In this document: in pieces, positions 11,126 through 18,707 of the stretch
How positions within the stretch are numbered: position 1 is the first letter of the stretch
Layout of the letters: every line of letters begins with the position of its first letter
IMG/VR virus record: IMGVR_UViG_3300010399_000005
Coordinates: 1 to 64,000 of that record
Source of the DNA: a virus
Length of the DNA: 64,000 nucleotides
Reading direction: 5' to 3' (one strand)
The notes under the pieces: model-generated
Seen by the model: only the letters and a program-made list of their open reading frames with translations
Told to the model about the DNA's origin: nothing
Databases searched by the model: none
Program-made: the position numbers and the translations under genes

Positions 11126-12311
11126 ATTGTCAGGGCTTCGCTGGTGGGTTCACGCTTGGGACAGTGCAAGCGGGTTTCGAGCTCGCAGGTAAATGTGAAC
11201 AACGTGGAGCGTTTGGTGCTCCTAATTGTCTCGCTAATCGTCATCTTCTTGGTGAGAACTGGGAAGTACAAGAAGGCGATCCTTCTACTTGGGAGCATCC
11301 CGGAGGGGAGGTGGTTCTAGTCACGGGTAACCCCCCGTGCTCTTAGCTGGGTTCTCACTGATGTCCAATCGCAACTTCCGTGGGGTGAACTCACCGGCGA
11401 ACGCGTGCATGTGGGCGTTCGTCGACTACGTGTCACGGGTGCGGCCGTACGTGGCGGTGTTCGAGTCGGTCCAGCAGGCGTTCACGACCGGCCGTGAGCT
11501 CATGACCGCACTCATACATCATCTTCGCAACCGGACCGGCCTCGACTATCACCTGTATCACGTGAAGCACAACAACATTGCACTAGGTGGGTTCGCCGAA
11601 CGTCGTCGCTACTTCTGGGTCGCAGCACGTGTTCCCTTTGGCGTCGAGCTGCCGGAACTGCGGCGCCTGCCAACGCTCTGGGACGCCATCGGGGACATCG
11701 AGTCGTCCCCGGTCACCTGGGAACGTCAGCCGTACCGTTCCCTACCTAGCCCCTGGTCCGAGCGGCTTAGAGCAGAGCACGGCTTCGATGGGCACGTCAC
11801 GCGTACCACTCCTGAGTTTCACCGCGCGATGGCGCTCCTACCGGTAGCAGGACCCTGGAACCCAGGCGAGAACATCTCGATGGTCGCCCAGCGCTATCAT
11901 CAGCTCACCGGTACGCTTCCTCCTACGTGGGAGTACCGTCGTGAGAAACTGCTCAACAACGGCTTTCACATGGGTTTCCACCAGCTCATCCGCTGGAAGC
12001 CTGAGAAGCCTGCACGTGTCATCACCGGTGGGGCTCTTCAACTTGTGTTACATCCCACACACGATCGCACACTCACTCACCGTGAAGCTGCTCGCATCAT
12101 GGGCTTTCCCGATGACTGGGTCATAAAACCACTACGAAGCTACTCCCAACTTCAATCCACGTGGGGTAAGGGCATTCCCGTGGGAAGTGGACGCTGGATC
12201 GCGACATGGGCAAAGCGCTCAATCCTAGGTGAGCCTGGTGAGCGTGTGGGGACTCCCATCGCGGATCACGAGAGTCTCATTGATGTGACGAAGGTGCAAC
12301 CTTGCTCATAG
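11113..12311 (+). CDS. C5 cytosine DNA methyltransferase, interrupted by a 5-nt TAGCT insert at 11344-11348
   Basis: Motif I-like GFAGGF and motif IV GNPPCS in frame 11113-11346. GFS, FESV, ERRRYFW, LTHREAARIMGFPD and WGKGIP follow in the +2 frame. Removing 5 nt restores PPCSGFS. Confidence 0.85.
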
Positions 12312-12362
12312 GTTGTGGTACAGTCGAGATTCGCAACACTGCTACAGGAAGGAACGAACGAT

Positions 12363-12665
12363 ATGACTGATGTCGCCACCGACCCGTTCGTCGAGAACAC
12401 CCGGCGTTCGATCGACGTCATCAACCGGGACCGTCAGGTCGCCCGCGCGCTCACGGTCGCACCCGCCGAGGGTGAGGACCCGAAGTACACCGTGGAGAAG
12501 CTGACCGAGGTCCTGGGCCTGGGTCGGAACGCCGTGTACGCGTCGATGGTCAACCTCAAGCGTCGGGGCTTCGTCGAGAAGGAGAAGACCGAGTCCCGCA
12601 CGCCCCGCTGGTACCTGACCGAGCTCGGCACCCAGTATGTCGGGCAGCTTCCCGCCGCTGCGTGA
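12363..12665 (+). CDS. winged-helix DNA-binding protein
   Basis: LTEVLGLGRNAVYASMVNLKRRGFVEK...WYLTELG; GGAAGGA SD. Confidence 0.7.
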   Translation: MTDVATDPFVENTRRSIDVINRDRQVARALTVAPAEGEDPKYTVEKLTEVLGLGRNAVYASMVNLKRRGFVEKEKTESRTPRWYLTELGTQYVGQLPAAA

Positions 12666-12674
12666 GGTCAGCGG

Positions 12675-12783
12675 CGGTCGGCTGAGCGACCCACACCGCT
12701 CAGTCTACCGGTTCGGCGGCACCCCTCCCCGTCAGAGCATCGGGTAAGCTCCGGGGAACCAGCCTGGGGTGCCGCCGACCCGG
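12675..12783 (+). other. two GC-rich stem-loops (terminator-like or structured RNA)
   Basis: GGCTGAGCG/CGCTCAGTC; TCGGCGGCACCCC/GGGGTGCCGCCGA with inner TCCCCG/CGGGGA and GAGC/GCTC. Confidence 0.55.
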
Positions 12784-12812
12784 TTGCACAGTGACCCGAG
12801 ATGTGATAATAT
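12784..12812 (+). promoter_or_regulatory. sigma70-type promoter
   Basis: TTGCAC-17 bp-TAATAT followed by GAACT; parallels the promoter at 14657. Confidence 0.65.
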
Positions 12813-12847
12813 GAACTCGTGAACTTGGACACACCGAGGATGGGACG

Positions 12848-16042: not shown

Positions 16043-16270
16043 ATGGACCGTGTACGTGATGATGTCGTGCTCGTTCACGACGATGAGGGTAACGTCATCG
16101 ACGCCATGCCCACCGGTGAGTACTTCAGTGAGGACGTCGATCACGGGTACACTGACAACCATCACAGTGTAGTGGGACGCGGTAGCTCAGCCAGGAGTAA
16201 CGATCCCGTGAGAGCGACCAACGAACGCAAGGTGAAGTCTTCACCGCGTTCACCCATGTCCCAACGTTAG
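16043..16270 (+). CDS. hypothetical protein
   Basis: Strong GAGGAGG SD. Confidence 0.5.
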   Translation: MDRVRDDVVLVHDDEGNVIDAMPTGEYFSEDVDHGYTDNHHSVVGRGSSARSNDPVRATNERKVKSSPRSPMSQR

Positions 16271-16313
16271 ATCGATGTGCTAAGATGGAACAATGCGACA
16301 AGGAGATAAGACT

Positions 16314-17165
16314 GTGACTAACATACCTGCGCTGCCAGCTGACGTGCTTGCGGCAGCTTCCCAGACCAACCAGGAGCTGATGTGGCTCCACGTGGCCGAC
16401 CTGCGTGTCGACCCGCGGTACCAGCGGCAGCTCGACATGAAGCGCGTCCGCAAGATGGCCAAGGACTTCGACATCGATGCCTTCGGCGTGCTCTACGTCT
16501 CACGACGCGCCGACGGTGGCCTCTGGCTCATCGACGGTCAGCACCGACAGGCAGTCATGTTCGAGATCGGATACAGCGACCAGAGCGTGCCCTGCCTGGT
16601 GTTCGATGGTCTCGCGTTCGAGCAGGAAGCACGTATCTTCCGCCTGGCCAACAGCGGTAGTCGGCCCAACGCACTGTCGCTCTTCAAGGCCGCACTCGCC
16701 GAGGGCGATCCACAGGCCGCTGACATCGACCGCACCGTGAGAAGCTGCGGGTTGCAGATCGGCTCCGGTGGAGGTCACCGTACGATCGGTGCTGTCCAGG
16801 CCGTTCGGCGAGTGCACCGCGAGACTGGTGGCCTCACCCTGAAGCGCGTGCTCAACACCATCGTCGAGTCGTGGGGTTCGGCCGCCACCAACTTCCAGTC
16901 TGACATCATCCTCGCATTGGGCCTCATCGAGAAGCGGTACGGCAAGGAGTTCAACCGCGACCGGCTGCGTCAGCAGCTGACGACGGAGGTTCCCGAGCAG
17001 CTCCTCGCGAGGGCCCGTGCTCGGAAGAGGTCGGGGTCTGGGAACATCTGGGCGACGGAGGTTCCCGAGCTCATCGTCGACCTCTACAACAAGGGCCTGC
17101 AGAAGAACTCCAAGAACCGGCTCCGTGACTGGGAGCGCAAGGGCGATCGTGAGGTGTGGACCTGA
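16314..17165 (+). CDS. ParB/Srx-like DGQHR-motif protein (DUF6551-like)
   Basis: LRVDPRYQR, FGVLYVSRR and LIDGQHR motifs; AGGAG SD. Confidence 0.75.
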   Translation: MTNIPALPADVLAAASQTNQELMWLHVADLRVDPRYQRQLDMKRVRKMAKDFDIDAFGVLYVSRRADGGLWLIDGQHRQAVMFEIGYSDQSVPCLVFDGLAFEQEARIFRLANSGSRPNALSLFKAALAEGDPQAADIDRTVRSCGLQIGSGGGHRTIGAVQAVRRVHRETGGLTLKRVLNTIVESWGSAATNFQSDIILALGLIEKRYGKEFNRDRLRQQLTTEVPEQLLARARARKRSGSGNIWATEVPELIVDLYNKGLQKNSKNRLRDWERKGDREVWT

Positions 17166-17220
17166 TGCGAGCTTTGATACATCGTCTGCGGTACATCATC
17201 GAGAGCTGGAGGTGGGGTCG

Positions 17221-17442
17221 ATGATACCCGCTCTCGAGACCGAGGCTCTGATCGCCGTGATCATGGATGATCGTGAGACACTACATAAACTACTTGATGA
17301 CCTATACGTAAGCGAGTTGAGGAAGCTCAGTGCCGACGCCGAAGACCTACGCAGGTCAGCAGCTCGAGTGGCTTGGAGAAAGGAACGACGTGCGTCCACG
17401 CAAGGGTCCACGTCCACCCTCCCGGGAGGAACAAGCTCGTAA
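17221..17442 (+). CDS. hypothetical protein
   Basis: GGAGGTGG SD before ATG. Confidence 0.5.
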   Translation: MIPALETEALIAVIMDDRETLHKLLDDLYVSELRKLSADAEDLRRSAARVAWRKERRASTQGSTSTLPGGTSS

Positions 17443-17638
17443 GCGCTTGGCCGACCACCGCCAGGGTCGTGATGATCGTGACCGTGCAGCCCGAGAGTTC
17501 CAGCAACGGCAGGATGACGCCATCGCTGCCTACGCTCGCGCTGAAGCACAGCGCTCGGCGCGTACATACAACGACTGGCGAGATGAGACGGGTAGGGCCG
17601 GTCGAGCGATCCTCGACCGACTCTTCCGCAACCGCTAG
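17390..17638 (+). CDS. Arg-rich hypothetical protein
   Basis: AAAGGA SD before GTG; converges on the end of the late operon. Confidence 0.45.
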   Translation: MRPRKGPRPPSREEQARKRLADHRQGRDDRDRAAREFQQRQDDAIAAYARAEAQRSARTYNDWRDETGRAGRAILDRLFRNR

Positions 17639-18707
17639 CTGACCTTCGCGCGTCGAGCGTTCACTCGTTGAGTGACCTCATGCGCCAGCTGCCACGTCTC
17701 GGCCCAGTGCCACGCGTGTTCCTCGAAAGTCAGCAGTCGAGCGATCGACCGTGCTGCTTCACTCGTTTCCTGCCACGCCGAGTCATCAGTGAGAAAGCGC
17801 TTCAGTGCCTTGACCCAGGACCGTGTCCGTTGGTCAACTAGGACACCAGCCTCGGGGCACAAGTTGTGCAGCACTCGGTACTCGCCGATGTCCGACGCTA
17901 CCCAGGGGCACCCGACGGATGCGAGCTCCAGAGGCTTGAGATACGACTTGCCTCGATTGAACCTCGAGTCCGCGAGGGGTGCGGCTCCAACATCGAGGTT
18001 GAGTAGTCCTTGCGACCAATACTGGAACTCGACGCGTCCTGTGGCTCGAGGATCCTCAGGTAGACCGAGTGCCTTACCCATCCCCTCTGGGTAGCCCACC
18101 ACTAGGAAGTTGTCGCGTAGCTGCTGGACCGCACCTGCGAGAATGGGTACGTCATCGGGATGCGAGTGCACGGCGCCTGGCCAGCCCCAGATACGTTCAT
18201 CTCTCAGTGGCCGTTCAAGCTCGGTGAACCGACGCGGTACGCAGTTCCGCAGCACACGCGAACGCTCCTTACCGAAGCGTGTCTGAAGCTCAGGGGTGGA
18301 CACCGTGACCAGCGTCGCGAGACGACACGCACGTTGAGCGTGATGCCAGTTGTTCTTAGGGGAACGAGCTGGATGAAGCATGGCGAACGCGGCGTTGTCT
18401 GGATGGATGCACGTGAGGTCATCATCCATGTCGACGACGACTGTCTTACCCTCGTTGATCAAGTGCTCCATGAGCTGGACGAGGAAGACGTTCGTAGGCC
18501 TCTGAAAGACGTAGACATCTGCGTCGCGCCCTACCTGTACTGACCGCAACCGGTCACCGTCGCGGATGGCGAACAGGCCTGAGGGGTCACCTGGCATGAC
18601 GATCTCAACGTCGTACCCCTGTCGCTGCAGCTCCTGTGCTGGCCAGATCAGTCGGTAATGTCCTATCCGCAGCCCCACGCGTCAGCTGGAAACACGCAAG
18701 TCTTCAT
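17635..18707 (-). CDS. GT-B (family 4-like) glycosyltransferase, interrupted by a 5-nt TAGGA insert at 18661-18665
   Basis: ATG at 18707 gives MKTCVFPADAWGCG-stop; the +2 frame continues HYRLIWP...VFQRP...DMDDD...VTVST...FNRGKSYLKPLE. Removing 5 nt restores GCGHYR. Confidence 0.85.

Follow-up and report, generated by a model that had tools for sequence, protein, structure and literature searches.

Natural translational bypass is, to our knowledge, known from very few cases, namely gene 60 of phage T4 and its homologues, the byps of yeast mitochondria and, as a candidate, the terminase gene of phage phiHau3. The byps are mobile-element-like and have lengths of about 27-55 nt, and we know of no link between them and endonucleases. 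Here, we present the analysis of a 64,000-nt window of viral DNA in which two unrelated genes, coding for a methyltransferase-like protein and, on the opposite strand, for a glycosyltransferase-like protein, are each interrupted by 5 nt that begin with an in-frame TAG. The window comprises the first 64 kb of the IMG/VR virus record IMGVR_UViG_3300010399_000005, a genome of 81,641 bp which has direct terminal repeats and a G+C content of 56-63% and is estimated to be complete.

According to passages of a preprint on the mobile element MobA, the bypass insert of T4 gene 60 prevents self-cleavage by this endonuclease, the gap is opened by a stop or hungry codon, take-off and landing codons are matched, and some lineages have kept the bypass after loss of the endonuclease (bioRxiv 10.1101/2022.08.31.505936). 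For the terminase gene of the Streptomyces phage phiHau3, the main text of a recent study describes two 10-nt inserts led by UUA at invariant junctions as well as a 7-nt insert in a prophage (Antonov et al. 2023, PMC10732093). The junction peptide of the 10-nt bypass was detected there by mass spectrometry in E. coli once UUA had been replaced by UAA (PMC10732093). Synthetic stop-hops between matched codons were first observed with reporter constructs in E. coli (as cited in PMC5009743: Weiss et al. 1987, whose title names +5 and +6 events). As far as the relevant passages of the same review go, no natural in-frame stop-hop is known (PMC5009743).

Both breaks in the window split the DNA for an invariant motif (Table 1). 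In the methyltransferase gene (site 1, plus strand), the upstream part carries the Pro-Cys of motif IV and the downstream part matches the profile of C-5 cytosine DNA methyltransferases (PF00145). The catalytic Cys is followed by Ser, the usual residue at this position of motif IV being Gln (PCQ). The best non-self relative of the downstream part is 76% identical and, with 391 amino acids (aa), of full length, and all 15 relatives first fetched have a single open frame across the motif, mostly GNPPCS-GFS (the hyphen marking the position of the break). In the glycosyltransferase gene (site 2, minus strand), the match to glycosyltransferase group 1 (PF13692) reaches 28.9 bits against a curated cut-off of 27. 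The best non-self relative of its downstream part is 69% identical and has 374 aa, and the single relative first fetched reads ...vwgcg-YYRLIW. Since the relatives are open through both motifs, exactly 5 nt are extra in each gene. This bears out a preliminary description of the locus, according to which removal of 5 nt restores the family motif at both sites and neither gene contains another stop or frameshift. The joined product is colinear with 15 of 15 and one of one relatives, and 77 + 320 and 14 + 341 codons are open.

The explanation that we favour, and to which we give about an even chance of being right, is that these are target-site inserts linked to homing endonucleases, which would be tolerated because ribosomes hop across them between matching take-off and landing codons. 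The inserts would then represent a shortened form of the T4 gene 60/MobA cassette and of the 10-nt bypass of phiHau3. Alternatively, the 5 nt might be an artefact of sequencing or assembly or might be removed from the RNA, and the metagenomic origin of the genome, which was found in one run only, speaks in favour of this. Both inserts are, however, present in the independent Logan re-assembly of run X1, a soil metagenome that is possibly the source sample. A Logan contig of 81,548 nt with a word depth of 49.9 spans positions 11000-19000 with 0 letter differences and 0 gaps. The second assembler gives an identical sequence here, and an artefact of the IMG/VR assembly is therefore ruled out; minor variants are not visible in contigs, and a library artefact lies outside the reach of a re-assembly. 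In addition, similar inserts occur in other samples and assemblies, and no mechanism is known for splicing out 5 nt. We rate artefact or RNA-level removal as the least probable of all explanations considered here.

Related loci from IMG/VR, 80 for each of the two genes, were each compared by tblastn with a full-length relative. At the methyltransferase, 78 of 80 loci are in one frame, and the remaining two (L062 and L087) each have a split at residues 68-70. L062 reads GGC AAC CCC CCG TAA GA CCG TGC TCA GGA TTT, with take-off codon CCG, stop TAA and landing codon CCG 8 nt further on. L087 reads CCG TGT TCT TGA ATATGTGTAA TCC GCA TGG, with take-off codon TCT, 13 nt from TGA on, and landing codon TCC. 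A scan of JGI metagenomes yielded 29 methyltransferase loci, two of them split (L198 and L214). L198 and L062 have identical insert sequences and contigs of nearly equal length (103,577 vs 103,486 nt), and they were counted as a single phage. The other split locus, L214, is new; its sequence is TGC AGC GGC AGA TC GGC TTC, with GGC as both take-off and landing codon and AGA in the A site. Two further scans for the methyltransferase (17 and 70 loci) gave no new broken allele. At the glycosyltransferase, the family N-terminus M[RK]V.V.PAD.WGCG[HY]YRLIW is unbroken in 78 of 80 loci, and the other two are broken at residues 14-16. One of them, L101, has a 7-nt insert and reads GGC CAC TAT TAG G TAT CGG CTG, in which TAT serves as take-off and landing codon; the other, L172, has 1 extra nt and was left out of the insert class. 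This single extra T (L172:1188-1260, GGG TTT C TAT), at the GCG-F-Y-R motif, may represent an error, a simple frameshift or slippage by +1 from TTT to TTC ahead of the rare codon CTA. Among all methyltransferase and glycosyltransferase loci compared, no break was found elsewhere in either gene, and the chance that three further methyltransferase breaks fall within the same 4 of about 390 codons is about 1e-6. The preliminary description had proposed a scan of related phages for XYZ-TAG-YZ (a codon, TAG and a repeat of the last two bases of the codon) at split open reading frames (ORFs); such phages carry other short inserts at the same two motifs.

Written from the take-off codon to the end of the insert, the six multi-base inserts are TCT TAG CT (own site 1), GGA TA GGA (own site 2), CCG TAAGA CCG (L062), TAT TAGG TAT (L101), GGC AGATC GGC (L214) and TCT followed by 13 nt from TGA on and TCC (L087). 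Their lengths are 5 nt at both own sites, 7 nt (L101), 8 nt (L062), 8 nt (L214) and 16 nt (L087). In five of the six, the last conserved codon is immediately followed by a stop (probability 1.3e-6 for random triplets and 8e-5 for AT-rich filler); the sixth, L214, has AGA at this position. AGA is rare in the genome under study (4.0 per 1000 codons), and so is the TCT of site 1 (3.8 per 1000 codons). All six inserts end in a triplet with which the same peptidyl-tRNA could pair, perfectly in four cases, by synonymous wobble in one (TCT/TCC) and through two of three bases in one (own site 1). The maximal direct repeats GGA, TAT, CCGT and CGGC lie in codon register (p ~0.05). As in bypassing of the gene 60 type, the gaps open with a stop or slow codon (TAG at both own sites; TAA, TGA, TAG and AGA in the relatives), take-off and landing codons match, the gap is absent from homologues and the joined product is colinear with them. 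The rare UUA at the 5' end of phiHau3-type inserts is missing, as the inserts in the window begin with TAG. The Pro-Pro codon pair CCC CCG precedes the break in four of four broken methyltransferase alleles (own, L062, L087, L214) and occurs in only one of 58 distinct intact alleles (p 9e-6). This bias may stem from common descent of a cassette, from an effect on the nuclease site or from a role in pausing.

Protein databases contain 21 other N-terminal methyltransferase fragments. Fourteen of them end exactly at ...GNPPCS, five extend 1-19 residues further (P0261 like L214), one is a normal gene cut by the contig end and one ends before the motif. On the glycosyltransferase side, P0010, 58% identical to the protein of the window, starts with MGLRLGHYR, the same out-of-frame reading as our own MGLRIGHYR, and P0017, 76% identical to L101, shares the out-of-frame TIRY reading of L101. 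All four visible differences between P0017 and L101 lie on third positions of the short upstream frame (p 0.06).

These data have to be weighed against the chief rival explanation, the assumption of dead alleles, in which the inserts, having arisen at endonuclease cut sites or been brought in through gene conversion that an endonuclease drives, put two dispensable accessory genes out of action and no hop takes place. We regard this as possible but doubtful, and the same holds for the accompanying assumption that such alleles persist because a selfish cassette spreads faster than selection removes it. Dead alleles would not lead one to expect stops directly behind the last conserved codon in five of six inserts, the 14 of 21 database fragments ending exactly there, repeats in codon register or the same insert in glycosyltransferases as distant as those of P0010 (58%) and P0017 (76%). 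Furthermore, the alleles with multi-base inserts carry one lesion each in all six cases, with about 320-340 downstream codons per allele, and none of the broken alleles was found to have more than one; the multiple disabling lesions or the relaxed constraint of a decaying pseudogene were not observed. Diversity among the N-terminal parts of 23 interrupted methyltransferases (mean pairwise identity 0.68) equals that among intact ones. At the 19 columns that hardly vary in intact alleles, these parts depart from the consensus in 0 of 434 cases, and their column entropies correlate with those of intact N-parts (rho 0.90). In addition, the foreign N-terminal part at site 1 has kept 79% protein identity to L018 at a proportion of synonymous differences (pS) of 0.97.

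Several observations weigh against the hop, and part of them is what dead alleles would predict. The nearest relatives with available DNA (70-77% identical) lack both inserts. In a poorly resolved tree of the N-parts, broken and intact alleles are interleaved, with at least 12 state changes among 182 rows; this leaves room for a recent origin of many breaks, in which case conservation of the parts would count for little. For the same reasons, long vertical descent of the broken state was rejected. L087 and L055, two variants from one metagenome, differ only by a replaced patch, so that a broken allele can be acquired in a single step, and where the gene is dispensable, a selfish endonuclease could drive even a null allele. 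The ratio of nonsynonymous to synonymous substitution rates (omega) proposed for examination in the preliminary description is indeed low downstream of the breaks, namely 0.10 for the methyltransferase against both L018 and L019 and 0.12 for the glycosyltransferase against L098, but these comparisons have low power for recent decay. For L087 and L055, omega of the C-terminal part is 0.057 at dS 0.38, which does not decide between the readings, the patch not being datable. Neither these omega values nor those of 0.10-0.12 date the inserts.

Further difficulties concern the hop itself and its link to endonucleases. The pairing of take-off and landing codons put forward in the preliminary description holds at site 2, where GGA-UA-GGA is perfect, and four other phage alleles follow the same logic; at site 1, however, the Ser tRNA leaving TCT would pair with the landing triplet GCT in only two of three positions. 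Short unassisted hops in reporters are inefficient, and no convincing stimulatory signals were found at the sites among RNA folds and 5' hairpins. The folds around the two own sites are ordinary (z -0.55 and +0.64); z-scores at L087 and L214 are -3.0 and -3.0. A conserved 5' hairpin, in which G-runs pair with the C-run of the Pro codons in all four broken methyltransferase alleles, was discarded, as the minimum free energy of the 39-nt stretch ranks 13, 1, 33 and 54 against 58 intact alleles. No endonuclease was found in the DNA examined near own site 2 or beside the other broken alleles L087, L214 and L172, and relatives of the endonucleases described below lie beside intact genes in L054, L069, L075 and L138. 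As a candidate near site 2, a 123-codon ORF (17196-17567) was rejected; it has no family match even at E 10, is rich in Arg and Ser and looks non-coding. GIY-YIG endonucleases have no match anywhere in the genome.

A homing endonuclease adjoins the interrupted gene at site 1, in L062 and in L101, but not at site 2, in L087 or in L214. At site 1, an HNH gene with a NUMOD3 motif overlaps the methyltransferase start by 13 nt (Table 1). L062 has a 43%-identical HNH gene in the same position, and an HNH_3-AP2 endonuclease lies directly upstream of the broken glycosyltransferase of L101. The usual upstream neighbour of the methyltransferase is a dUTPase-like gene (45 of 78 loci) or DUF6378 (19), HNH_3 being found only once (Pfam, E 0.001). 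Among 81 loci searched by tblastn with three HNH queries, an adjacent HNH is associated with a break (two of five vs one of 76, Fisher p 0.009).

The G+C content at third codon positions (GC3) is about 0.67-0.70 in the genes next to the HNH gene, but 0.41 in the HNH gene itself and 0.42 in the N-part of the methyltransferase gene; it rises to 0.82 (63 of 77) in the next 77 codons and is 0.67 in the whole C-part (Fisher p 4e-7). L062 shows the same step (0.54, 0.49, then 0.80). Relative to L018, the N-part has pS 0.97 at 79% protein identity and the C-part pS 0.69 at 76% identity. Between L087 and L055, identity falls to about 60-70% in the stretch that begins with the gene and ends some 25 nt beyond the insert, compared with about 90-97% on either side, which at the protein level corresponds to 97% identity of the C-parts and 70% of the N-parts. 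From the jump in GC3 and pS together with the L087/L055 patch it follows that the insert and the 5' part of the gene are brought in jointly by replacement, as would be expected of homing with co-conversion. Taken alone, the presence of a homing-endonuclease cassette at site 1 is probable. The mobile-element footprint, which the preliminary description had offered as an alternative, was half right, as the insert of site 1 lies at the edge of the HNH homing-endonuclease block.

Table 1. Positions of the interrupted genes, their inserts and the HNH genes in the 64,000-nt window
Feature	Position	Strand	Remarks
Second HNH ORF	~6160-6614	+	PF01844, 35.3 bits; between DUF669 gene (5288-6157) and glycosyltransferase-like gene (6605-7939)
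HNH homing endonuclease with NUMOD3 DNA-binding motif	10508..11125	+	NUMOD3 E 3.5e-7; HNH 19.4 bits; PF01844 22.7 bits, over cut-off, at 10718-10861; PHROG 15471 'HNH endonuclease' and 10 other HNH/homing PHROGs; probable true start ATG 10637, 2 nt after end of dUTPase-like ORF
Methyltransferase N-terminal part	11113..11343	+	77 codons, MRFVDCQGFAGGFTLG...GNPPCS; from ATG 11113, ...VVLVTGNPPCS, then stop; recoded, low GC3
Site 1 as a whole	11335..11354	+	CCG 11335-37, TGC 11338-40 (catalytic Cys codon), TCT 11341-43, TAG 11344-46, CT 11347-48, GGG 11349-51, TTC
Proposed take-off codon TCT (Ser70)	11341..11343	+	last codon common to all relatives
5-nt insert TAGCT	11344..11348	+	in-frame stop TAG 11344-46; proposed landing triplet GCT 11346-48
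Methyltransferase C-terminal part	11349..12311	+	320 codons + stop (12309-12311), from GFSLMSNR...; PF00145 E 1.4e-12; +2 frame after site 1 continues GFSLMSNRNFRG... to this stop
Glycosyltransferase C-terminal part	17635..18660	-	341 codons + stop, from HYRLIWPAQEL...; PF13692 E 1.5e-6
5-nt insert TAGGA	18661..18665	-	stop TAG 18665-63; proposed landing codon GGA 18663-61, identical to take-off
Glycosyltransferase N-terminal part	18666..18707	-	14 codons, MKTCVFPADAWGCG; proposed take-off codon GGA 18668-18666
Site 2 as a whole		-	ATG 18707-05 ... TGG GGC TGC 18671-69, GGA 18668-66, TAG 18665-63, GA 18662-61, CAT 18660-58, TAC CGA

The favoured explanation, endonuclease-linked inserts with a ribosome hop, can be put as a sequence of steps. 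A free-standing HNH endonuclease beside the gene would cut or nick the DNA for the conserved motif in insert-free alleles; the inserts always lie inside the DNA for one of the invariant motifs, GNPPCSGFS or GCG[HY]YR. The carrier's own copy would be protected, its target site being split by a few extra bases, and endonuclease, recoded 5' part and insert would move together by gene conversion. During translation, the ribosome would stall with a stop or rare codon in the A site, and the peptidyl-tRNA would detach from the take-off codon and pair anew with the triplet that closes the insert, i.e. from GGA to GGA, 5 nt on, at site 2 and from TCT to GCT at site 1. Decoding would resume after the landing triplet and give a product exactly colinear with the homologues. 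Site 2 may be a relic in this scheme, or its insert may have been acquired without a nuclease.

Other ways of translating the interrupted genes appear less likely than a hop, since a one-base frameshift would add two residues inside an invariant loop and a restart would split the catalytic loop. The latter is implied by a model of split enzymes, in which translation stops at the insert and restarts nearby and the two polypeptides assemble, as in the T4-type topoisomerase and NrdA split by MobA and MobE. GTG codons in the downstream frame are present 7 nt (11337) and 13 nt (18678) before the stops, and working two-protein versions of split genes are described for MobA/MobE insertions in passages of the preprint cited above (bioRxiv 10.1101/2022.08.31.505936). 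The splits, however, lie inside the catalytic loop PC-S-GFS and behind only 14 residues of the glycosyltransferase, and added tails like the CTE and NTE of MobA elements are missing. A TAA immediately upstream of the landing codon closes the downstream frame of L087. The catalytic Cys codon of L062 follows the gap and its stop, with no start codon near, and would stay untranslated; only a hop could therefore bring the catalytic Cys into the protein. We consider split enzymes very unlikely.

Equally remote is a regulatory stop-hop system, in which a shared signal TGC-XYZ-TAG-YZ would gate or throttle both enzymes together. It was suggested by the preliminary description on the grounds of the TGC NNN TAG NN common to both own sites, which also share ACTGAT at +11 to +16. 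The Cys codon turned out to be incidental, as the inserts of the relatives are located before TGC or 2-3 codons after it and contain TAA, TGA or AGA. ACTGAT was rejected as a signal because it represents Leu-Met and Leu-Ile codons of two unrelated proteins, and no sign of gating by a common trans-acting system was found. The bare pattern is nothing unusual. YZ-TAG-YZ occurs at 41 of 513 TAGs on the plus strand and at 28 of 442 on the minus strand (69 of 955 in total), i.e. at the chance level of about 1 in 16, and TGC-XYZ-TAG-YZ has five occurrences in the 81,641-nt genome. What is above chance is the position of the breaks inside invariant motifs and what relatives show there, not the pattern itself. 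When a codon model was scored on all 69 YZ-TAG-YZ sites, only site 1 and position 19353 (minus strand) passed, site 2 remaining just under the filter because its upstream part is open over only 16 codons. Position 19353 (TTG TAG TG) was rejected as a third site, the flanking ORFs being separate overlapping genes in different frames in L017. The junction at 9019 (TAG, +1) is an ordinary overlap, since the GTG at 9008, the true start of the epimerase gene, lies behind GAGGAGGG, a good ribosome-binding site. The scan of the genome gave no third site, and no genome-wide system was found. No phage tRNA is encoded within the window. A tRNA-Gly(acc) of 78 nt called by ARAGORN outside it (genome positions 72224-72301) has several mismatches in the acceptor, D and anticodon stems and is probably a false call, so that a credible phage tRNA is lacking.

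The surroundings of the two genes were also inspected. On the plus strand, a run of genes between window positions 6605 and 12311 codes for a glycosyltransferase-like protein, a protein of 374 codons without assignment, an NAD epimerase/GDP-mannose-dehydratase-like protein, a dUTPase_2-like protein with a zinc ribbon, the HNH endonuclease and the C5-methyltransferase-like protein, and may constitute a DNA-modification module. Both neighbours of the second HNH ORF look intact. Between the stop of the interrupted glycosyltransferase and a ParB-like gene (DUF6551, 16293-17165), about 470 nt (window 17165-17635) are without counterpart in L017. A megablast search against cultured phages gave no phage that is close at the DNA level. 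A protein search with the methyltransferase returned 15 records, from 13 Gordonia phages, one Micrococcus phage and one Actinomycetia phage; these cultured or database records are all in one piece, with 36-38% protein identity. A search of bacterial genomes gave one locus, in a metagenome-assembled genome of Coriobacteriia, and no RNA data set was listed as containing the stretch. This likeness to the proteins of cultured phages might tentatively place the insert-bearing phages among those of Actinomycetota.

Should the hop be real, micro-inserts led by a stop would be routinely tolerated by ribosomes wherever a matching landing codon is available, and selfish endonucleases would exploit this to immunise their own genomes inside otherwise unchangeable sequence. 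It is conceivable, with a probability that we put slightly below even, that very short hops (5-16 nt, down to GGA-UA-GGA) are a natural and recurrent device by which homing-endonuclease cassettes split their own target sites in invariant catalytic motifs without loss of the protein. T4 gene 60 might then, with just as much reserve, be regarded as the elaborate extreme of a widespread class and not as a singularity. For annotation, phage genes from metagenomes that look frameshifted may be functionally intact, and the N-termini assigned to them by gene callers, such as MGLRIGHYR, are false. As the sites are short and sharply delimited, the idea lends itself to direct tests with reporters and mass spectrometry.

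Among the described systems, the bypass cassette of the MobA element in T4 gene 60 (Manning & Atkins) is, by analogy, the closest. The take-off and landing codons match in both, and site 2 has even the same GGA followed by UAG. Both inserts lie in a highly conserved coding region beside an HNH endonuclease (MobA there, HNH-NUMOD3 at site 1) and are thought to protect against the element's own nuclease, which is stated in the preprint for MobA and predicted for the inserts described here. In contrast to the 50 nt of gene 60, the gaps described here measure 5-16 nt, and none of the stimulatory elements (take-off stem-loop, Shine-Dalgarno sequence within the gap, nascent-peptide signal) was found, the tests made not extending to the nascent peptide. 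The genes in question are not split by the endonuclease gene itself, and the targets (methyltransferase, glycosyltransferase) and the host group are different. The endonucleases belong to the types HNH-NUMOD3 and HNH-AP2.

In size and host group, the inserts of phiHau3 are the closest by analogy. As far as described in the main text of that study, these likewise are short blocks that disrupt the frame of an actinophage gene at invariant junctions, have no counterpart in homologues and begin with a codon that is slow to decode. Bypassing was preferred over frameshifting there as well, the junction tolerating no extra residues, and UAA was able to replace UUA in E. coli. The slow codon in the present inserts is a stop (or AGA) and not UUA, the genes are different, and no link to a host life cycle is proposed. 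The association with endonucleases is a further difference, the words 'homing', 'HNH' and 'methyltransferase' being absent from the main text of PMC10732093. The stop-hops of Weiss et al., as cited in the review, were artificial constructs, whereas the present sites are natural, out of frame and recurrent. The byp elements in mitochondria of Magnusiomyces capitatus, to judge from their citation in PMC10732093 and PMC5009743, resemble the present inserts in that many short bypassed inserts occur in conserved genes, but they belong to a mitochondrial system and not to phage genes. In the literature searched, no description was found of stop-led inserts of 5-16 nt in methyltransferase or glycosyltransferase genes beside homing endonucleases; supplements lay outside this search, and those of PMC10732093 may hold insert sequences. 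Compared with these systems, the new features are a gap of down to 5 nt, a true stop codon, other target genes and the recurrence of the inserts at two motifs beside HNH-NUMOD3 or HNH-AP2 endonucleases.

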